IMG/VR virus record: IMGVR_UViG_3300020576_002361
Location: 14,976-78,975 of that record
Length of the DNA: 64,000 bases
Strand: one strand, 5' to 3'
DNA from: a virus
Lineage: Duplodnaviria > Caudoviricetes
Every line of letters starts with the position of its first letter. Within the stretch, counting starts at the first letter, position 1. Of the stretch, positions 36,840 to 61,895 are shown one piece after another. The notes beneath the pieces are model-generated. The model was not told the origin of the DNA, did no database searches, and saw only the letters and a list, made by a program, of their open reading frames with translations. The position numbers and the translations under genes were made by a program.

Positions 36840-38792
36840 TCAAGACATCTTGCTGAAATTGTTCTTCTTTTCCACTCTAATAGATCTGTCAAATTTGTCT
36901 GTTAATATATCTCCCTTATGGGAAATAACGAATACGTGAGTATTCACACTAAGATGCTTGAGTAACTTCAGAAAATCTTCTGTTCCAGAAGCATCCAATG
37001 AGCTATCAAATACCTCATCCAATATAAGGATATTAGTATTAGTGCTGTTCTTGGCTCTTGCTATTTCTCTCCAGGTTAACATCAAAGCCATATCGATTCT
37101 GAATTTCTCGCCTTCAGAAAACGAGTTATACTCAAAGTCATCTCGGTGCCTACTCTTTATCTTTTCCTTAAACGATTCATCTAGGTTGAAATTAACAAAG
37201 AAATCCATAGCACTCAAATACTTGTTAATATACTTGTTCATAAGAGGCAGATACTGCTTGACTATTTTGGACTTAATACCGTTATCTTTCAATAAAACTT
37301 GAATAATATCGTAGTCATATTTTCTCAGCATTATCTCTTCTTTTTTAGCGAGATTATCCTTTATATTCTTTCTGAGTAACTCTACCTTTTCCTCTTCCTC
37401 CTTTATAGTTTCATCTATATTTAGGTCCAATGTGTTTCGGATTTTAAGTATGTAGTTATTTGACTCGGAAATCCTAACATCAATCATAGAAATACTAGAA
37501 GATATATCCTGAATTTCTCTTAATATTTGCTTAGCAGCATCGATATTTTTTCTTGTTTTGTCTATCTTCTTGTCTATCTTGGTTACAGCAGAGTTGATTT
37601 CTTCTAACTTCTTAGACATAGAACTGACTGTCTCGTCTCTGAATAGAGCATCTATAGCTCTTTTACAAGTAGGACAGGAATCATTTTCATTATAAAATTG
37701 AATAGACTTAGTTATATTCTTTCCTTCTGTTCCTATAGTAATACGTAGGGAAGTAAATTCCTTTATTTCATCTTCGCATTTAGAAAAAGGCAGCAAAGAT
37801 TCTTTCTTTTCTTCTAACACTTTCATCAATGCTTTCTTTTCTTCCGCAAGCTTAGCATTAGAAGACTCGGCTTCCTTTATTTGTTGTATCTTCTCTTGTC
37901 TATCTTTATTATTTCTGGACTTCAGCTTAGCTATGTGGTCTTCATGAATCTTACATTTTCCTTCATCAGAAGAGATTTCAGATTCTATGGATTTTATATC
38001 CTCTCTTAGGAGAGAATACTTTTCCTTTAGAACTCCATTCATTCTAGTGAAAACCTTAAGATCCAACAGCTCCTCGATCACTTCTCGTCGTTGGCTGCTC
38101 GTTAACTGCATAAATGGGACATAGTTAGCAGAACCCAAGACTACCAATTGAGCAAAAGAATCAAAGTTAAGCTTCAATATGTTTTGCTCTAGATGCTTCT
38201 GATAGTCTAGATTCTTAGCGTCTTGATTTAAAAGTACACCGTCGCAATAGATCTCAAATACAACTGGTTTTAATCCACGTATTATTTTATATTCTTGCTT
38301 TCCTACGCTAAACTCTAACTCAGTAATACAATCTTTATCATTTATGCTATTCACTATTCTGGGTTTGTTTATAAATCTATAAGCCCTACCGAATAGCGCA
38401 AAGGTCAACGCACACAAGAATGTGGAATTGTGTGACACTATTCCATTAGTATAATATTCCTTTACTGTGTTTACCTGTAAATCATATAAATCTTCTGTAA
38501 ATTCGCAACAAGAAACACGTCTGATCTCTTTTTTGCCTGTTTTTGTTAAAACAATATCACCAACTTGACAATCTTTCAGTTTTTTCCATCCGTTGTTTAC
38601 AAAAATCTTATGATCCGGAGAACCTTCCAAATATTGATCTTCTGTTTCTATCTTTAAGATAGGCGAATCATAAGCCGTAATATCCGCCCATTCTATGTCA
38701 TAAAACCCATGACGAGTTTCGACTTTTATCTTACCAATACAATCGGGATTTTGTTGGTAAAATTCTACTATATCTCCAACGGTGCATTTCAT
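36840..38792 (-). CDS. 46: gp46 (Rad50/SbcC-like) C-terminal part fused to split-intein C-fragment
   Basis: 122-aa intein fragment (SPDHK, LYDLQV, YYTNGIVSHN), then STFLCALTFALFG...CPTC...FSEGEK...LILDEVFDSSLD. Confidence 0.93.
   Translation of the reverse strand: MKCTVGDIVEFYQQNPDCIGKIKVETRHGFYDIEWADITAYDSPILKIETEDQYLEGSPDHKIFVNNGWKKLKDCQVGDIVLTKTGKKEIRRVSCCEFTEDLYDLQVNTVKEYYTNGIVSHNSTFLCALTFALFGRAYRFINKPRIVNSINDKDCITELEFSVGKQEYKIIRGLKPVVFEIYCDGVLLNQDAKNLDYQKHLEQNILKLNFDSFAQLVVLGSANYVPFMQLTSSQRREVIEELLDLKVFTRMNGVLKEKYSLLREDIKSIESEISSDEGKCKIHEDHIAKLKSRNNKDRQEKIQQIKEAESSNAKLAEEKKALMKVLEEKKESLLPFSKCEDEIKEFTSLRITIGTEGKNITKSIQFYNENDSCPTCKRAIDALFRDETVSSMSKKLEEINSAVTKIDKKIDKTRKNIDAAKQILREIQDISSSISMIDVRISESNNYILKIRNTLDLNIDETIKEEEEKVELLRKNIKDNLAKKEEIMLRKYDYDIIQVLLKDNGIKSKIVKQYLPLMNKYINKYLSAMDFFVNFNLDESFKEKIKSRHRDDFEYNSFSEGEKFRIDMALMLTWREIARAKNSTNTNILILDEVFDSSLDASGTEDFLKLLKHLSVNTHVFVISHKGDILTDKFDRSIRVEKKNNFSKMS
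38427..38792 (-). mobile_element. Split intein C-fragment (gp46)
   Basis: Block B TxxH-like motif (GSPDH), blocks F/G ending HN, followed by +1 Ser. Confidence 0.9.
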
Positions 38793-38858
38793 AATAAAGT
38801 TTCCACAAAAGTATCACATTCCTCTTTATTCCACAACAAACGCACTGAAATAACCGGA

Positions 38859-39077
38859 TCAGGGAAGATTTTGCCTATTTTTCAAAAATTCTTCAAATTT
38901 TTGCTTTACAGCAGGGTCTTCTATAGAAATATCTATTTCCGTAAGCTTTCTCACACATTTACCTTGACCATTTTGACCAGAAATCAAAGTAGTAGGAGAT
39001 TGCGTAAGGTCTACTTCAGTCCAGTAGTTACCATACGAAAGAAAATTCTTCCATTTTACTTTTTTGAAACAAATCAA
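38859..39077 (-). CDS. 46: gp46 N-terminal part (Walker A) fused to 32-aa split-intein N-fragment
   Basis: FKKVKWKNFLSYGN...LISGQNGQGK|CVRKLTEIDISIEDP...; intein Cys1 at 38957. Confidence 0.92.
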   Translation of the reverse strand: MICFKKVKWKNFLSYGNYWTEVDLTQSPTTLISGQNGQGKCVRKLTEIDISIEDPAVKQKFEEFLKNRQNLP

Positions 39078-39080
39078 ACA

Positions 39081-40139
39081 TTACTCCTTGTCTTCAGAAG
39101 ACAAATCATAACTTTCATTATACAAATCATTTATTATAGTTTTTAACCTATCAGCACAAACATCAGTTAGAGAATCTATTTCCTTAGAAATGATGCTAAC
39201 GGTGTCCTGTGTCTGGTCAACTGTATCAGTTGTATCTACAAAGAGGTCAACCTCTTCGATGATGTTAAATTCCGCTAGATTGGCTTGATAAAATCGATCA
39301 ATTATTTTTTCAAGATCTTTTGGTTTTGTTTTCTTTCTCACCACAAACTTTACATAGCAATCTTTATACTTATCATAATCATAAACAGGAACAGAAGTGG
39401 TGTCATCGTAAACCAGCCTATAGAATATCTTATATGGATTTTCAATAAACTCTAAATCTCCGTTACTTAAGTCTATTGTATGAAATCCTTTGCGTTCGTC
39501 TACATCTGCGAACGTCATATCATACTGAGTTCCAAGGTAGTATATCTGCCCATCATCATGCTTCTGGTGAAAGTGTCCAGAGAAGACCTTGTGAAACATA
39601 CCAACTTCTTCTTTATCTATTCCTTCTTCGCTTAAGATACCACGAAGAACCTGAAAACCCTTGATTGCGAAGTGACCAAATGACAAGGTAGACTTTGTTT
39701 CCTTGACAAAATCATGAAATCTAGACATATTATTGTCGTTTAACCATGGAATCAAAGCTACGGTGTTGCCTTCTATAGAAACATCCGTTGGCTCGGAATA
39801 CACCTTTACGTTAGGATAGTGTGAGTATAACTCCGTGGTGGAGTTTACTTCGGAAGTATTACGGAATACAATATCATGATTACCAAGAATCATGTGAAGA
39901 GTTATTCCCATTTTCATTAATGGTTCAAAGAACTCTGTTCTGCTAAACCGCAAAGTCTCTATATTTACATACTTCCTCTTATCCAGAAAATCACCAAGAA
40001 AGATGATAGTCTTGATGTCGTGTTCCTTAATATAAGGAAGTAGCAGATTATCCAAAAATGTCTTAATGTAAATACGGAATACAGGAGAATCCGATTTTAG
40101 CCCAAAATGCAGGTCATTTAATAACAACACCTTACTCAA
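39081..40139 (-). CDS. 47: gp47 recombination nuclease (Mre11/SbcD-like)
   Basis: LNDLHFG, LGDFLD.RK, ILGNHD, FGHFAI.GF, SGHFH. Confidence 0.95.
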   Translation of the reverse strand: MSKVLLLNDLHFGLKSDSPVFRIYIKTFLDNLLLPYIKEHDIKTIIFLGDFLDKRKYVNIETLRFSRTEFFEPLMKMGITLHMILGNHDIVFRNTSEVNSTTELYSHYPNVKVYSEPTDVSIEGNTVALIPWLNDNNMSRFHDFVKETKSTLSFGHFAIKGFQVLRGILSEEGIDKEEVGMFHKVFSGHFHQKHDDGQIYYLGTQYDMTFADVDERKGFHTIDLSNGDLEFIENPYKIFYRLVYDDTTSVPVYDYDKYKDCYVKFVVRKKTKPKDLEKIIDRFYQANLAEFNIIEEVDLFVDTTDTVDQTQDTVSIISKEIDSLTDVCADRLKTIINDLYNESYDLSSEDKE

Positions 40140-40765
40140 GGATCTTTCTCCATAAACTCATTCAACGGAGATATTTTCTTTGGTTTTTGGTTCTTATTTT
40201 CTTTAATTTTACTGGTTTTCTTATCGAAATATTCTACATCATTTTCATTAAGTTTAAAGAATTCTGCGTATATGTTATTCTTATCCGGATCTATCTCATA
40301 CTTCTTGATTATGTGATCCTTCAAGGCTCCAGTAGTGTCAGCCCTTTCAAACAACTTCATCTTTACATAACATTGCTTCTTTTCCTTTTGGATCCTTCGC
40401 AAGAAGGCAAAGAATATGATTTGTGTAATATACGCAAAAGGATTCTTGGATTTCTCTGGATCAAAGTTATCCAGGTACATTATGGCATTTTCTATGCCAT
40501 CGGAGACCATTTCTTCGCGAAACGTATACCCTGCAAAATTTGGTCTAGATGATAGCCTTTCCGCAATTTTAAGGATTGCTGAACCTATGTACTCCGAAAT
40601 CCTAGGTCGTGTAGTAAGTTCACCGGACGCAAACTTATTCATCTCTGTCTTATAAAGAATCATTTCTTTTAATAAAGTGTCATTATTTACATAATGGTTT
40701 GCGGTACACTCCTTTTCAATAACTACTATTTCTTCTTCCGCCTTCTGTATTATTTCTTCTTTCAT
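40136..40765 (-). CDS. 55: Late sigma factor gp55
   Basis: HYVNNDTLL, YTFREEMVSDGIEN, KSKNPFAYITQIIFFAFLRRIQKEKKQ. Likely start MKEEII at 40765. Confidence 0.95.
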   Translation of the reverse strand: MKEEIIQKAEEEIVVIEKECTANHYVNNDTLLKEMILYKTEMNKFASGELTTRPRISEYIGSAILKIAERLSSRPNFAGYTFREEMVSDGIENAIMYLDNFDPEKSKNPFAYITQIIFFAFLRRIQKEKKQCYVKMKLFERADTTGALKDHIIKKYEIDPDKNNIYAEFFKLNENDVEYFDKKTSKIKENKNQKPKKISPLNEFMEKDP

Positions 40766-40789
40766 TGTAGACCCTTTGTGTACTAGTGT

Positions 40790-40817
40790 ATTATAGTACA
40801 CCTTTGTTCAAAGTCAA
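40790..40817 (-). promoter_or_regulatory. Sigma70-like promoter TTGACT-N16-TATAAT for gp55
   Basis: + strand ATTATA 40790-40795, AGTCAA 40812-40817. Confidence 0.8.
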
Positions 40818-53116: not shown

Positions 53117-55963
53117 TTAGAACCGCGGAAAATTCCCTTTCTTGTTTCCATATTTATTAGTTGGAACATTTACGTTTGGATCAAGCTGAGGATCTAATGT
53201 ATCTTCTTGCCCAGGAGGGAACCCATCATAGGGTTGTTCGCCGCCCTGTATAGGAGAATCAAAGTTGTTATCTAATCCAAAAGCATCATCTCTTTCTTCT
53301 TGATCTATTTGGTTTTGCTCGTCTTTCAAGTTTTCTTCTTCCATCTGTAGGTCCATAAGCTCAATATCAGCGTCATTCTGACGAAGAATATTCTTTCTTA
53401 CCCATTCCTTAGAATAGAAAGTACCTATAAATGGAGAAATAGCAGTCAACGAGTTCAACCTTTCGTTTTCAACTTCTAGTTCCTTAAGTTCAGAGAAATA
53501 CATGTCATGAGCAAAGTGGAAGTGAGCTTTCTTCTTGAAAGTGTCTTCCCATTCGTCTTCAGTCATTATTCCTTTAAGAAGTAGTTGCTTCTTTAGTAGT
53601 TCGTAAAACACTTCTGAGAATTTTGTTCTAAGCCGTTCAATAAACTTGGCAAACTTTATTTCATCTCTAGAGATTTCCATAGAACGACCGATCTGGAAAC
53701 TCTTTTGTTCGTTTTCTACTCTAGAATAAGGTATGTTCAGAGCTTTAGAAAGCTTACGAAGGAAGTAGTTTATATCGGAAATTTCACCAATATTGGAGTT
53801 CTTTGTAAAGACTCCGCATGAAAGAGCAAAAGTGTGATGGTTATGATATATTTCGTTACCATCTATAGTAAGAGTTCCTACTTCGATAGGATCTGCTATG
53901 TATTCTATAGAAACTATTCTATGATTATGTAACGAATGTTGTTTGCGCAACTCTGTCCATGATGAATATCCAAACTCTTTTATAGCTGATTTGATAATCG
54001 TAGGGCTAAATCCATCAGATATATTCCAGTTTGGAACTGTCTTAGATTCGTTTAGTTTATTCAAACAAGAACGCATAGCATCGGATTCGTTTAGCAAAGA
54101 AACAACGTCTTTGATAGTAACTTCGTGCGTTGATTTCCCCTTTATATTATCTATAATAAAGCAAAGTATTCCGTCTTTTCTAGAAGAAATAATAGACTGT
54201 TTTTCCTCTTCTGACTTAGAATTCCAGGAATCCTTCAACGAACAACTTACCTTTTCACAATAAGCCGCGTAGTTTTCTGGATCGTTGTTTTTCATATACT
54301 CTATTTTTTGCCTTAATGCTGCTGCGCCCAACTTAGCATTTTCAATACCAAAAGAATGATCTGTGTGATATACAGAGTGGTCATCCCAAGACATATAGCA
54401 AAGATTTTCTGGAGTATTATTAAATCTATCGTGATCCTTGTGGTGTATTACGTTTTTGTTGTATTCGGCATATGATTCGTTGTAAATAAAGTCGTGTACT
54501 TCAGTATTCTTAAAGAAAGATGCTACCATGCTATGAGTATATACCCATTGTTTGGTGGCATTATCATATACCATTTCATAGTCTTTCTTCTTGTTACCGC
54601 CTATTGTCTTTTTCTGACTATAGAAAGGAATAAGTGAAGATCCAGTAGATAACTCATCTGCTCTAACAAATCCTACTCCGTATACAGGGAATTTGTGGTC
54701 AGGAGTACATATAATGTGCTTACCATTATCAAAGGTTATTTTCATTACCTTTGCTGATTTTTGAGTAACTCCCGCCCATGTTATAATACCCGGCTTAACT
54801 TCTCCGGTTACTTCGTCGCACGAATATGCCCACAATTTCTTTCCAGAATTCATTTCTTCTGTTATTTGAGAAATGGTCAACTCACGACCATCTAACAGAG
54901 GAACCTTTGTATCCATAGCCAAGCACGCACCAGGTAAAGTATTAATTTCCGTTCCTTTGCCGCCTTCTCTTCTTGGTAGCCAGTAGTCTTCAAGTACAGA
55001 TAAGTAACGTCTTTCGTCTCTTACTTCTCCAGTGTTCGCATCATAAGAAAGCTTATTTCTATATCTGTTAATAAGCTCTTTCATGTACTGTTCGGCTTTG
55101 GCCTTTGGAAGGTTACCTACATCAATATAGAAAGCACGTCTTTCTGGTGCTCTGGCTAAGCGATAGATAACTACGGAGTCCTCCATCATCTTTAGCTGAT
55201 TGAGAGGTCTAATAGCCTTATGAAGATAACCAAATACCAATTTCTTTTGAGGATCATATAATCCCGATGTTACATACACGATTACATCCGGACTAATCTT
55301 AATACCGGAGATAGAAATACCGGTTCCTCTATTTACTTGAGGAAGAGAAGTGTCTATGATTGTTTTATTGTAAACATAGAACTCATTCTTGATCGTAATG
55401 ACTTCTATGCCATTCGGATCTAGTTTCTTTTCAATCTCTCTGACCTTTTTCATGTTCAAAGGATCGATATAGCGTATTTCCTTTATTCCGTCTTCTGGAT
55501 TCTTTTCGTCTATAATAGTATGAAAATAACATCTAGCGTCAATATACCAGCGTCTAAAGTAATCATACCCTTTTGTCCTAAAATTGAGAAGCCCCAGTAT
55601 TGTATCAAACTCTCTGTATATCTTGTGCTTCGTGGATTCAGAATAATCTAGCTGATCCATGATGAGTTTGACGGGTTCTTCAACCTCGTCCGTCACTATA
55701 GCTTCGTTAGTGATTTCTTCTATAGCAGTATCTATTTCTGGGTGTATGGACATCGATCTATAACGTACAACTAAATCTGTATCGTTTTTATAAGAACCAT
55801 CGATATCAACATACTGACTGCTGAAATGAGAACCCCCGATACCTCGGGCATTCTCAATAGTTATGGCGCCATCGTCAAAAGCAGGTGGAGCAAAGGATTG
55901 TCTAGATTCTTGCTCTTTCTTTTGTTCTTTCGAAAACGGGAATTGAAAACCAAATAAATTCAT
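53117..55963 (-). CDS. 20: Portal protein gp20 containing an intein
   Basis: HPEIDTAIEEI.NEAI, RRWYID.R, YRLARAPERRAFYIDVGNLPK.KAEQY, EDYWLPRREGGKGTEI.TLPG, then after the insert NIGEI.DI.YF..KL.KALNIP. Confidence 0.96.
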   Translation of the reverse strand: MNLFGFQFPFSKEQKKEQESRQSFAPPAFDDGAITIENARGIGGSHFSSQYVDIDGSYKNDTDLVVRYRSMSIHPEIDTAIEEITNEAIVTDEVEEPVKLIMDQLDYSESTKHKIYREFDTILGLLNFRTKGYDYFRRWYIDARCYFHTIIDEKNPEDGIKEIRYIDPLNMKKVREIEKKLDPNGIEVITIKNEFYVYNKTIIDTSLPQVNRGTGISISGIKISPDVIVYVTSGLYDPQKKLVFGYLHKAIRPLNQLKMMEDSVVIYRLARAPERRAFYIDVGNLPKAKAEQYMKELINRYRNKLSYDANTGEVRDERRYLSVLEDYWLPRREGGKGTEINTLPGACLAMDTKVPLLDGRELTISQITEEMNSGKKLWAYSCDEVTGEVKPGIITWAGVTQKSAKVMKITFDNGKHIICTPDHKFPVYGVGFVRADELSTGSSLIPFYSQKKTIGGNKKKDYEMVYDNATKQWVYTHSMVASFFKNTEVHDFIYNESYAEYNKNVIHHKDHDRFNNTPENLCYMSWDDHSVYHTDHSFGIENAKLGAAALRQKIEYMKNNDPENYAAYCEKVSCSLKDSWNSKSEEEKQSIISSRKDGILCFIIDNIKGKSTHEVTIKDVVSLLNESDAMRSCLNKLNESKTVPNWNISDGFSPTIIKSAIKEFGYSSWTELRKQHSLHNHRIVSIEYIADPIEVGTLTIDGNEIYHNHHTFALSCGVFTKNSNIGEISDINYFLRKLSKALNIPYSRVENEQKSFQIGRSMEISRDEIKFAKFIERLRTKFSEVFYELLKKQLLLKGIMTEDEWEDTFKKKAHFHFAHDMYFSELKELEVENERLNSLTAISPFIGTFYSKEWVRKNILRQNDADIELMDLQMEEENLKDEQNQIDQEERDDAFGLDNNFDSPIQGGEQPYDGFPPGQEDTLDPQLDPNVNVPTNKYGNKKGNFPRF
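53798..54925 (-). mobile_element. Contiguous 376-aa intein with HNH endonuclease domain in the portal gene
   Basis: TLPGA|CLAMDTKV...CTPDHKF...VIHHKDHDRFNNTPENL...HTFALSCGVFTKN|SNIGE. Confidence 0.92.
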
Positions 55964-58716: not shown

Positions 58717-60513
58717 TTACCATTCAAAATCCATCTTTTTGCTTTTGGGTTTATTTGGAGTCTCCTCTTCAGCTAGCCATTGTTCAAAGCTTCTATTGTC
58801 TTCTTCAAACATGCGACTTGTGATATCGTCTACTCCATCCTCTAGAAATCCAAATAATGTAATGTCATCTTCAGCTTTCTTTATCTTGTCTTCAAACAGT
58901 CTCTTTTTGACATCTGTGCTTGTATACTCTTGAAAGAAAGGCTGAGATGTTAACCAACAAAATACTACCAAAGACATAACTACGTCATCATGATTGCCTT
59001 CTGATGCAGCATAAGTGTTCTTTGTTTTGACAAACGTGCTGAATTCGGAAACAATATCAAAGTCATTGACTATTATCTTTCTGTTTTCTATGAAATCCTT
59101 CAAAACTGAGCATCCATAGTTTTTGATCTGGTAGCTCATCTTGACACCTTTTCTGGACCTACCACTAAACCCACCGTCTGCTTTTTGACCATGTTTTTGA
59201 GTAGAGCAAGACACGTAAATAAGATGCTCATATTCCAATTCTTCAACCAAGCTAGTAGCTATGCTATCACCCGTTGGATCGTTATTTTCTATTAGGGTAT
59301 ATGCGTTGTTGTATTGCTTTGCTATCTTATGAATGATATTAGATAGTAACTGTGGCGAAAGCTGATTATTTCTGTAGACTGCTACTACCTTGTATGGGAA
59401 TTTAGTGCAGTCTATTACGGTTACAGCATGGTAATCTAGGTCTATACCTTGAGACGGGTCTACACATATAGTATATAAATGCTTCTCTATAGGAGGCTCG
59501 TAAATCTTAAATCCGTCTGTTGTTTTCATCACTGGCTCGTTATAAACCAACGAAGCTAGAGCAGACGGAGAAAGAAGTGTATTATCAGATCCTAAGAACT
59601 CTACTTCAAACTCAGCACTCCATCTGGCTTCTTTGTTGCCAGCGAAGTTTGCCATGATTTGCTTTTTGAACTCTTCATCTCTACCAGGAACTTCATTCCA
59701 TTTAGCTTCTACTCGTACATACGTGTTTCTGTTATTTACGGAATCCATCCACATTTTATAGAATAGGTTTAGCCCGTTTGGAGTAGAAATAACTACTAGT
59801 TTAGTATTAGTACCAGCCGAGATCGTTGGAAATACGGAGCTGAAGAAGTCTTCAGCCAAGTTTGCTGGAACGAATGCGAATTCGTCCAGAATAACAACGT
59901 TATGCGTACCACCTCTGGCAGATGAAGACGAGGTAGACGCTACAGTGACTTTAGATCCATTTTCCAACTGAATGCTGTGTTTGTTCCATTCGACAACACC
60001 TTGTTGCATCCATTTTGGAAGATGCTCAAATGAGTTCTTAATCATGTTCAGCAAGTTCTTTGCCGTAGTTTGCTTGTTAGCTAGTACGGCAATAGAAATG
60101 TTGGGATTAAATAAAAGCTGATGAAGTGCCCAACTCATTGTTGTGGTGGAATTGTGTGAAACTATTCCGTTAGTATAATACAAGTTGCCGTCTTCGACAT
60201 CAATCAAATCGTACATGTTATCGGATTCGTTTGTTTCTTCTACAGAAAGAACTTCTTCAAACGCATCTCCTTCGCAAAAAATCATATCACCTACTTGTAG
60301 GTCGCATGTATATACTTCCATTAGACAAGTAGGGTCATCCAAATCTCTGCGTATTACAATATGATAATCCGCACAAACAAGTTCTCTGTTTGCGGTTTTT
60401 ATTATCCACTTGGTGTATTCTTTGGTTTTACCAATACCAGAAAAAGATTGATACCCTGTTGGAGTTTCTACCTCCCATTCATCGGTTAAAACTTCTTCTA
60501 TAAACTCAGCCAT
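58717..60513 (-). CDS. 17: Large terminase gp17 C-terminal part fused to split-intein C-fragment (121 aa)
   Basis: WEVETPTG...CADYH...MYDLIDV...YYTNGIVSHN|STTT (intein ends at 60151), then ILDEFAF, ISTPNG, DPSQG..LDY, HDDVVM. Confidence 0.94.
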   Translation of the reverse strand: MAEFIEEVLTDEWEVETPTGYQSFSGIGKTKEYTKWIIKTANRELVCADYHIVIRRDLDDPTCLMEVYTCDLQVGDMIFCEGDAFEEVLSVEETNESDNMYDLIDVEDGNLYYTNGIVSHNSTTTMSWALHQLLFNPNISIAVLANKQTTAKNLLNMIKNSFEHLPKWMQQGVVEWNKHSIQLENGSKVTVASTSSSSARGGTHNVVILDEFAFVPANLAEDFFSSVFPTISAGTNTKLVVISTPNGLNLFYKMWMDSVNNRNTYVRVEAKWNEVPGRDEEFKKQIMANFAGNKEARWSAEFEVEFLGSDNTLLSPSALASLVYNEPVMKTTDGFKIYEPPIEKHLYTICVDPSQGIDLDYHAVTVIDCTKFPYKVVAVYRNNQLSPQLLSNIIHKIAKQYNNAYTLIENNDPTGDSIATSLVEELEYEHLIYVSCSTQKHGQKADGGFSGRSRKGVKMSYQIKNYGCSVLKDFIENRKIIVNDFDIVSEFSTFVKTKNTYAASEGNHDDVVMSLVVFCWLTSQPFFQEYTSTDVKKRLFEDKIKKAEDDITLFGFLEDGVDDITSRMFEEDNRSFEQWLAEEETPNKPKSKKMDFEW

Positions 60514-61555
60514 TTATAAACTCCAAACATGTAGATATAACTCGATTGGGATCTTTTTTATAATCCCTCTCGGATATATGTAGTATTTTATATCCGTCTT
60601 GAATTAAAACCTGATCTCTATCTTTATCTCTTTGCTGGTTTCCTCTGGCTTCACCGTGCCAGTAGTCTCCATCAAATTCAATTATGAGTTTTTTGGATTT
60701 TAGGAGGAAGTCAAAGAAAAATTTCTTTCCCGACGGAGATATATAGAAATATTCTTTAGAAGAAACACCGTGGTCTAATTTTTCGTTATTCTCTCCTAAT
60801 GTAGCAAAATATATATCTTCGTATTGTTCGCGTACCAGTTCGTATACTTTCCAAAATAATTCTTGAGACATTTTTGAATACCCCAAACCATTCATCATTT
60901 TTGCTCGGGTTATTCTTTCTATTTCCTCTGGAGGTTTGGAATTTAAGTTATTCTGCCATTTTTCTTGACGCTTGTTCCAAATATCTCGACCTTTTTCTTC
61001 CCCGTGTTTAGCAATACATTTTTCCAGAGAAAATGTGGATTGTCTTTCGGCTATCTTTAATTTGGCTTCTTCTTGTGTAAATCCTTGTTTAATCCAAAAT
61101 TCTGTGGTAGTGTTGTTATTCCCGTTTTCTTTATTAGACTTGCTTATTTTTTCTAGTACTTCTTGTTTATTTGTTGTACTGGCGTGAATAAATTTATCCG
61201 AAAGAGCAGAAAATTTCCCACCGTGTTGATATCCTGGATTATCTTTACCTGATGTAAACGTCGATATTTTATTACTATATGTTTCGCTGCATACGGGCTT
61301 GTTATATGTTTTGATATATTCTTCTGTATCTATTTTATGAATACGCTTTATATGGGTGGAGATATTATGGGATTTAAGACCACATATTTCACACGCAACC
61401 ATATCTGGTTCTTCTTGAAACTTTTCTTTACGCTTATTCATTTGTTGGCATCTGAGGCAGCAAAACATCCTGGTATGTCGTTTCGCCGGGAATACGGTAT
61501 TACAATGGAGGCAAGTTTTCTGGATTTGTTTTGTTTTGTTTTTCATGCAAGTCAT
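60506..61555 (-). CDS. Free-standing Vsr/DUF559-like homing endonuclease between the terminase halves
   Basis: N-terminal CxxC/CCxxC and C2H2-like motifs; C-terminal FFDF...IIEFDGDYWHG...QQRD..RD...GYKILHI.E. Confidence 0.85.
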   Translation of the reverse strand: MTCMKNKTKQIQKTCLHCNTVFPAKRHTRMFCCLRCQQMNKRKEKFQEEPDMVACEICGLKSHNISTHIKRIHKIDTEEYIKTYNKPVCSETYSNKISTFTSGKDNPGYQHGGKFSALSDKFIHASTTNKQEVLEKISKSNKENGNNNTTTEFWIKQGFTQEEAKLKIAERQSTFSLEKCIAKHGEEKGRDIWNKRQEKWQNNLNSKPPEEIERITRAKMMNGLGYSKMSQELFWKVYELVREQYEDIYFATLGENNEKLDHGVSSKEYFYISPSGKKFFFDFLLKSKKLIIEFDGDYWHGEARGNQQRDKDRDQVLIQDGYKILHISERDYKKDPNRVISTCLEFING

Positions 61556-61895
61556 TATAGAGTGCTCCTATGGTGGTGTCAAGAATTTCACCCGTCTTTT
61601 TGTTGCGAATTCTTATAGGAGTATTTAGACAAACACACTTTCCGCTCTGACGTGCGATCTTACAAATTGTAAACCTATTTTCGTGAATGGTCTTTACTAT
61701 GTTTTTTTGAAAGTTATACATCTTGAAAGGAGTTATTCCGTGGTCAAGGGAAACAATCTTAACATAGTTTTCCATAAAATAAATGGGATCGTCAGCGCAT
61801 TTTTGTAGTTCTAGAACTTGCTCTGGAGTAAAATTTATCCTGACTCCTGCGCTCTTTAGCGTAGGATTACCCATATAATTTTCATTGTTGCTCAT
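61500..61895 (-). CDS. 17: Large terminase gp17 N-terminal part fused to split-intein N-fragment (45 aa)
   Basis: YMGNPTLK...KCADDPIYF..NYVKIVSLDHG..PF.MY.FQ...KIARQSGK|CVCLNTPIRIRNKKTGEILDTTIGALY; Cys1 at 61637. Confidence 0.93.
   Translation of the reverse strand: MSNNENYMGNPTLKSAGVRINFTPEQVLELQKCADDPIYFMENYVKIVSLDHGITPFKMYNFQKNIVKTIHENRFTICKIARQSGKCVCLNTPIRIRNKKTGEILDTTIGALYNDLHEKQNKTNPENLPPL

Follow-up and report, generated by a model that had tools for sequence, protein, structure and literature searches.

The 64,000-nucleotide stretch of viral DNA analysed here (the window) is the 3' 64 kb of the 78,975-bp IMG/VR viral record IMGVR_UViG_3300020576_002361, and carries on its minus strand a gene for the recombination protein gp46 that is cut in two inside its Walker A motif. 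The phage is marine and T4-like, and its gp46 is a repair ATPase of the Rad50/SbcC kind. We conclude that gp46 is very probably made as two polypeptides and rejoined by protein trans-splicing through a class 1 split intein of the S1 type, which lies between the lysine and the serine of Walker A, and that an endonuclease gene has been deleted from between the two halves. Atypically split inteins and fractured genes are already known; what is new is the host protein, gp46, and not a mechanism.

Anatomy of the split gp46 locus

The minus-strand gene order around the split gene is T4-like: gp55-like late sigma factor, gp47, a 72-aa open reading frame (ORF) and a 650-aa ORF. The features of the locus are as follows, with positions given in the window.

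38859-39077, minus strand: N-fragment ORF, 72 aa (40-aa gp46 N-extein plus 32-aa N-terminal intein fragment, IntN), ending in GQNGQGK, a Cys-initiated 32-aa tail and TGA
38958-39077, minus strand: gp46 N-extein, 40 aa, 54% identical to residues 1-40 of gp46 of cyanophage S-SM1; Pfam AAA_23 match at residues 1-32
38862-38957, minus strand: IntN, 32 aa; block A strands beta1-beta2, with the catalytic Cys1, at residues 1-14, and a predicted amphipathic tail helix (KFEEFL core) at residues 15-32
38859-38861, minus strand: TGA stop codon of the N-fragment gene
38793-38858, minus strand: spacer, 66 nt, in the same frame as both ORFs, with a TAA and a TGA inside
38850-38858, minus strand: first 9 nt of the spacer, matching the nucleotides that immediately follow the N-fragment stop codon in L101, the closest relative
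38793-38849, minus strand: 3' remnant of a deleted Vsr-like homing endonuclease gene, its last 19 codons, out of frame with gp46; its TGA overlaps the C-fragment ATG, and it carries a weak GGA
36840-38792, minus strand: C-fragment ORF, 650 aa, starting MKCTVGDIV, with IVSHN-STFL at residues 118-126
38427-38792, minus strand: C-terminal intein fragment (IntC), 122 aa, with alpha1 (TVGDIVEFY), block B (SPDH), block F (DLYDLQV) and block G (IVSHN)
36840-38426, minus strand: gp46 C-extein, 528 aa and stop, opening with the +1 Ser that completes Walker A (GK-ST); SMC_N and SbcC Walker B matches
39081-40139, minus strand: gp47, the Mre11-like nuclease partner of gp46 (Pfam Metallophos, E 8.8e-9); the gp47-gp46 order is that of cyanophage S-SM1
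40136-40801, minus strand: gp55-like late sigma factor gene, upstream of gp47

The two exteins abut exactly on an uninterrupted gp46. In a BLASTP alignment to the intact gp46 of S-SM1, N-fragment residues 1-40, the last of which is the Walker A lysine (GQNGQGK), align to residues 1-40, and the serine after HN in the C fragment aligns to residue 41, with zero residues missing or duplicated. Excision of the 32 + 122 intein residues would therefore restore G-x-x-G-x-G-K-S-T exactly. Over its full length (100%), the C-extein is 43% identical to gp46 of T4-like cyanophages (tblastn); the relatives among GenBank phages are found at the protein level only, a megablast search of them with the 4.2-kb region having given no match.

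The N-fragment gene has a TTG start behind AAGGAG, and gp47 lies directly upstream of it, its stop codon 3 nt ahead of that start. No promoter-like or terminator-like site was found in the spacer, which is consistent with a single transcript for gp47 and both parts of gp46. The two gp46 genes are adjacent and probably co-transcribed.

A naturally split intein in gp46 had been proposed in an earlier note, made from the DNA letters alone. The ORFs, junction and spacer that it described all hold in coordinates and sequence, and the proposal is upheld by the anatomy of the locus and the exact abutment of the exteins, together with the class 1 residues and the intein profile matches that follow.

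Intein identity

The residues expected of a class 1 intein are present and conserved. Cys1 (Cys41 of the N fragment) directly follows the N-extein and is invariant in 13 aligned N fragments. Block B reads S-P-D-H at IntC residues 58-61, with Ser58 and His61 invariant, and in blocks F and G there is no variation at D101, D104, H121, N122 or the +1 nucleophile, S123. An alignment to known inteins, which the earlier note had envisaged, is provided by the IntC profile: it matches the solved inteins gp41-1, NrdJ-1, consensus CatC and VidaL with E values from 1.7e-11 to 2e-8.

Relatives in which the intein is contiguous point the same way. On one of these the Pfam intein model scores above its cut-off, with 42.5 bits. 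The HINT fold is predicted with a predicted local distance difference test score (pLDDT) of 93.6 and a predicted template modelling score (pTM) of 0.87; this model is of a natural relative, contiguous and inserted at the same site, and not of the two chains of the window joined together. The top Foldseek matches of that model are all inteins, VidaL (6vgv) coming first (E 6.8e-11, template modelling score 0.83 normalised to the target), followed by NrdJ-1 and Ssp DnaB M86.

Position of the split

Naturally occurring atypical splits lie either after beta2 (S1: VidaL, PolB16) or after alpha1 (S2: AceL-TerL, GOS-TerL), and the IntN fragments of the known natural atypical cases are 15-37 aa long (PMC13014065). 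The split of the gp46 intein is of the S1 type, just after beta2 and before alpha1. Helix alpha1 of NrdJ-1 (from chain residue 18 on) is aligned with IntC residues 2-15, which make up the T-V-G-D-I-V-E-F-Y helix, so that 13-14 residues of IntN are left for strands beta1-beta2. Relatives (L024, L038, L039, P0009/L104, P0068/L105 and others) have contiguous mini-inteins at this P-loop site, and in a joint alignment the split IntN matches their N-terminal part and IntC the rest, with the stop and start codons falling in one short loop. L104, one of the contiguous forms, was modelled with AlphaFold2 from an alignment of 53 rows. In the model, two short strands at the N terminus are followed by an additional helix (residues 23-32), a loop of four residues and alpha1 (residues 38-47), and the split of the window maps to the loop, residues 33-36, between the two helices. 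A single-sequence AlphaFold2 model of L038, with a pLDDT of 43, was not used.

An S2 split like that of the large terminase (TerL) intein, in which the helix of IntN would be alpha1 itself, was considered and rejected. IntC residues 2-15 already align to alpha1 of NrdJ-1, contiguous relatives that lack the extra helix retain the TV..V..Y helix, and the model shows two successive helices.

The earlier note had placed the T-V-G-D-I helix in the C fragment and the split near S1. The first is correct, the canonical alpha1 (TVGDIVEFY) lying in IntC, and the second agrees with both the NrdJ-1 alignment and the L104 model. Its description of an ultra-short N fragment with about 12 core residues stands only in part: the portion belonging to the HINT core is indeed small, at about 13-14 residues, but IntN as a whole has 32 aa, against 16 in VidaL and 15 in PolB16 (PMC13014065).

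The IntN tail helix and its predicted docking on IntC

The residues of IntN beyond this core are conserved in character. Phe24 of IntN (Phe64 of the N fragment) is nearly invariant in the 13 N fragments, N-fragment positions 57, 61, 64 and 65 form a hydrophobic stripe across the 13 loci, and the segment is also present in several contiguous relatives.

As the earlier note had suggested, the complex of the two fragments was predicted, with IntC plus 9 extein residues as one partner and N-fragment residues 33-72 as the other, each with its own 13-row alignment. All three runs score 0.76 and the best of 3 controls 0.02, which supports binding of the two fragments but falls short of demonstrating it. 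The runs agree in at least 89% of contacts, and the partner pLDDT is at least 72. The score mark is reached by 58 of 80 solved complexes and by 2 of 110 mismatched pairs, counts that hold only roughly here because self-made alignments were used; since complexes of split inteins have already been solved, the pass may also partly reflect likeness to these.

The predicted contacts fall into two sets. In the first, N-fragment residues 46-52 pair with IntC residues 3-6 and 22-25 as the canonical strands. In the second, N-fragment residues 57, 60, 61, 64, 65 and 68 lie on one face of a helix, and low predicted error is found for the pairs of residues 60, 61 and 64 with IntC residue 11, the invariant Phe of alpha1; IntC residues 14-15 and 18 are also in the interface. 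On this prediction, residues 15-32 of IntN would be a docking helix that packs on alpha1 of IntC, and this might explain how so small a core fragment locates its partner. Being conserved, present in contiguous relatives and predicted to dock, the tail is not dispensable filler. IntN is thus better described as short but not ultra-short.

A more far-reaching proposal is that the 18-residue tail is a family-specific helix which clamps alpha1 of IntC and so compensates for a core of only 13-14 residues, the locus having become a self-sufficient two-gene trans-splicing module after the loss of its endonuclease. We put this forward tentatively, as something that may well prove wrong. If true, a large natural family (at least 40 variants with Cys1 and Ser+1) would offer both a new design principle and scaffolds for semisynthesis with a short IntN.

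Distribution and conservation of the split

The same arrangement is found in many other metagenomic loci. A word-index search identified 25 protein clusters with the same N-terminal IntC, mostly 650-660 aa long and with Met 1-2 residues before the T-V/I motif, and a HMMER search returned 540 representatives at E <=0.001, 110 of them at E <=1e-10. The whole C fragment as query mostly gave intein-less gp46 genes, and an intein-only alignment was used for the locus search. The retrieved proteins with C-terminal intein motifs number 105, of which 94 have IntC at their start and 11 have the intein in contiguous form. An upstream N fragment was located in 40 distinct loci (from 80 IMG/VR loci and two others), and the search of metagenomes for gp46 homologues with the same split that the earlier note had recommended thus gives a positive result. 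In these 40 loci IntN has 26-33 aa, is always Cys-initiated and ends at the same position in the alignment, and IntC has 121-127 aa (two survey rows of 32 and 42 aa begin at an earlier GK-Ser upstream of Cys1). The split point, with its own stop codon and its own Met start, is shared across loci at 35-87% intein identity.

The closest relative, L101, is 72-80% identical to the window at the nucleotide level and is split at the same codon, with 27 of the 32 IntN residues identical. The ratio of nonsynonymous to synonymous substitution rates (dN/dS) between the two is 0.19 for IntN, 0.06 for IntC and 0.19 for the N-extein; both intein halves are under purifying selection. The recurrence of the split and the low dN/dS together exclude a freshly broken gene. 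An identical 140-nt junction is present in two other assemblies, L102 (a 24-kb contig of the Joint Genome Institute, JGI) and L103 (a Logan contig of a different run), each with only 3-4 substitutions relative to the window in about 4 kb. This contradicts the assembly error that the earlier note had named as a possible undoing of its proposal.

Two further observations concern the history of the intein. It is better conserved between the window and L101 than the C-extein is (dN 0.07 vs 0.29, with C-extein dS saturated), a contrast that would fit a recent exchange of the intein by homing or recombination, and not strict co-descent. In L104 (1597-2088) and L105 (1237-1743) there are contiguous inteins in which a full IntN tail helix is joined directly to the start of IntC, with Leu in L105 at the position of the initiator Met of the split form; these may be split inteins that were re-fused by deletion.

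The spacer and the lost endonuclease gene

Comparison with L101 indicates that the short spacer of the window is not the original state of the locus. In L101 a 431-aa ORF lies between the gp46 halves, its stop codon overlapping the C-fragment ATG, and in L006 there is a 339-aa ORF at the same place. The L006 ORF contains a 68-residue module that is 54% identical to the 349-aa DUF559/Vsr-like ORF splitting the TerL gene of the window, and this Vsr-like endonuclease family is that of the fractured genes described by Dassa et al. 2009 (PMC2677866). By blastn, window positions 40606-38850 correspond to L101 938-2688 and window positions 38840-37992 to L101 3953-4801, which means that the window lacks about 1.26 kb of L101. 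In a DNA alignment, the 3' end of the L101 endonuclease ORF is matched by the last 57 nt of the spacer; read in the endonuclease frame, the spacer ends ...LLWNKEECDTFVETLL, where the L101 ORF ends ...LLWTKQECDSFVGNLL, the last 16-19 residues being readable and about 12 of 16 identical. On these alignments the absence of an endonuclease gene from the window is a secondary loss by deletion. The earlier note was correct that no endonuclease gene stands in the 66-nt spacer, but this is a derived condition, the last 19 codons of an L101-type gene having remained.

Loss of this kind does not appear to be confined to the window. The gap between the halves measures 1028-1590 nt in 27 of the 40 split loci and 27-271 nt in the other 13. 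An ORF of 336-437 aa is found in 25 of the long-gap loci, and ORFs of 158 aa and 200 aa in L041 and L040, respectively. Seven other short-gap loci were examined: an endonuclease 3' remnant lies upstream of the IntC start in at least four (L023, L025, L034 and L047, with gaps of 134-256 nt), and no remnant that could be named was found in L027, L028 and L036. The breakpoints of the remnants differ among these loci, which suggests independent deletions that spared the start region of the C fragment. The weak GGA at -12 is conserved in L101, as is an ATGA overlap at the start of the C fragment, and we infer that the start context of the C-fragment gene, which lies in the 3' end of the endonuclease gene, is the reason why that end was retained. 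Two stages of the homing cycle can thus be compared between the window and its relatives: a fractured gene with its endonuclease gene in place, and one that has lost it.

Proposed mechanism and alternative explanations

In the mechanism that we favour, the two polypeptides would be translated separately, and the first 14 or so residues of IntN would supply strands beta1-beta2 to complete the HINT fold of the 122-aa IntC, with the C-terminal amphipathic helix of IntN resting on alpha1 of IntC. Cys1 would then form the thioester, the N-extein would be transferred to Ser+1, Asn122 would cyclise, and an O-to-N shift would release a 568-aa gp46 with an intact P-loop. At its origin the locus would have been a fractured gene, its halves separated by a free-standing Vsr-like homing endonuclease gene. 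A deletion of about 1.26 kb in this lineage would have removed the endonuclease gene and left the 66-nt spacer, the last 57 nt of which are its 3' end.

Several points weigh against this reading. Splicing, co-expression and stoichiometry are all deduced from the DNA sequence, and the role suggested for the tail helix comes from two structure predictions together with conservation. Block B has Ser in place of the usual Thr, and the Pfam Intein_splicing match to IntC alone (E 3.2e-5) is below the curated cut-off, at 24.2 bits vs 35.8. The ribosome-binding site of the C-fragment gene is weak, consisting of GGA at -12; an equally weak or absent site is found in 25 of 58 window genes checked.

The intein halves might instead serve as a non-covalent interaction module that holds the pieces of gp46 together, with no splicing at all. 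The complex model speaks for association only and not for chemistry, and there is a precedent in a fragmented phage NrdA that is assembled via domains derived from a mobile element, as outlined in PMC3045599. We nonetheless consider non-splicing assembly unlikely, because the class 1 catalytic residues are all invariant over at least 13 diverged loci, which is unexplained if binding alone is selected, and because the cut falls between the Lys and Ser of the P-loop, where an insert of 154 residues would occupy the nucleotide-binding site.

That gp46 is a decaying, non-functional gene, in which a contiguous intein or gp46 itself was recently broken by nonsense mutations or deletion, is very unlikely. 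Contiguous inteins do exist at the same site in relatives, and the spacer is a deletion scar. However, the same split recurs in the 40 loci at their wide range of intein identity, dN/dS is 0.06-0.19, the 650-aa ORF is intact with all ATPase motifs, and L101 is split at the same codon with its endonuclease gene still present. The recently broken contiguous intein that the earlier note had weighed is therefore not what is seen; the split form is old and widespread.

The locus could also be an artefact of sequencing or assembly, or ribosomes could bypass or read through the 66-nt gap. Such readings would be in keeping with the single frame shared by both ORFs and with the translational bypassing for which T4-like phages are known (T4 gene 60 being a reminder), but they are extremely improbable given the three stops in 23 codons, the gaps in relatives, which range over 27-1590 nt, fall in various frames and often enclose an entire gene, the junction identical in three assemblies, and the fact that a read-through product would still need removal of the intein. 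The dismissal of readthrough in the earlier note is therefore sound, and an intron, considered alongside bypass and readthrough, was likewise rejected.

Comparison with known split inteins

Among known inteins, the gp46 intein closely parallels VidaL, which comes from an environmental metagenome of Lake Vida. VidaL is a naturally atypically split intein with an IntN of 16 aa (PDB 6vgv/6vgw; Burton et al. 2020, as summarised in PMC13014065). Both inteins have a natural, cysteine-dependent split right after beta2, and VidaL ranks first among the structural matches to the model of the contiguous relative (E 6.8e-11) and is also hit by the IntC profile (E 2.1e-8). The two differ in that they are only about 22% identical, reside in different host proteins, and have Ser+1 in the gp46 case; the gp46 IntN is also twice as long, because of its 18-residue amphipathic tail helix.

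With GOS-TerL, AceL-TerL and Cat the gp46 intein shares a phage P-loop ATPase host cut at GK-S/T. Block G is nearly identical to that of the Cat/TerL inteins (YYTNGIVSHN), and CatC (6dsl) is matched at E 3.1e-9. The atypical terminase inteins also resemble it in their long IntC (122 aa in a terminase of Dassa 2009, PMC2677866, and 122 in gp46) and in an IntN of 25-37 aa. GOS-TerL and AceL-TerL are, however, split after alpha1 (S2, PMC13014065), whereas in gp46 alpha1 belongs to IntC (S1).

The fractured genes of Dassa et al. 2009 (PMC2677866) are matched by the related loci, 27 of 40 of which, including L101, have their halves flanking a free-standing endonuclease gene; in a relative, the ORF between the halves is a homologue of the Vsr-like (DUF559) ORF in TerL of the window. 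Unlike these, gp46 of the window has no endonuclease gene, its 66-nt spacer holding no ORF and only the 19-codon remnant, and gp46/SbcC is not among the hosts listed in PMC2677866.

The same topological split point is used in the engineered Ssp DnaB S1/M86 inteins, which have an 11-aa IntN (Sun et al. 2004, as summarised in PMC13014065; PMC3620165), and M86 ranks high among the structures that match the model of the contiguous relative. Those inteins are artificial and without a tail helix, whereas the gp46 intein is natural and evolutionarily maintained.

The natural short-N-fragment split inteins characterised so far are few, namely GOS-TerL, AceL-TerL, VidaL and PolB16 OarG (PMC13014065, PMC10189870). 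Demand for such inteins comes from protein labelling, for which the short half can be prepared by synthesis. No report of gp46, SbcC or Rad50 as a split-intein host was found in the literature searched, the scope of which did not extend to Thiel 2014, Bachmann and Mootz 2015, Burton 2020 and Sekar 2022, and this agrees with the earlier note, to which gp46 was not known as a described host. An S1 split with a helical IntN tail was not found in the same literature either. The gp46 locus belongs to a large, diverse and naturally maintained S1-type family with a host (gp46/Rad50/SbcC) that goes unmentioned in the literature searched. It is of moderate interest to intein engineering and to the study of how fractured genes evolve. 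For phage biology, the trans-splicing reading would mean that the recombination nuclease complex depends on a post-translational ligation step.

Other mobile elements in the window and in a near-identical strain

The large terminase gene of the window (58717-61895, minus strand) is a classical fractured gene, with the following parts.

61500-61895, minus strand: TerL N fragment, with a 45-aa IntN including helix alpha1 (S2-type split)
60506-61555, minus strand: TerL endonuclease ORF, 349 aa, DUF559/Vsr-like
58717-60513, minus strand: TerL C fragment, starting with a 121-aa IntC

Split inteins of the S1 type (gp46) and of the S2 type (TerL) thus coexist in one genome, and the earlier note was right to place the helix motif of the TerL intein in its N fragment, the 45-aa IntN including alpha1. 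The gp46 and TerL inteins of the window are similar only over their last 53 or so residues (43% identity). Window positions 38422-38456 and 60146-60180, which encode the last intein residues and the first two C-extein residues (Ser-Thr), are identical at 33 of 35 nt; gene conversion or a shared homing-site sequence is a possible explanation.

Two more inteins or intein-like inserts were observed. The portal protein gene gp20 (53117-55963, minus strand) carries a full-size intein with an HNH endonuclease (Pfam Intein_splicing at 355-704, HNH_3 at 503-529). In the 99.9% identical strain L102, the gp55-like sigma factor (L102 positions 32-1657) has a 332-aa in-frame insert that starts with Cys, ends with Gly-Asn before Thr and has a weak LAGLIDADG match; gp55 of the window (40136-40801, minus strand) is without it. 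The gp55 insert is an intein presence/absence polymorphism between near-identical phages.

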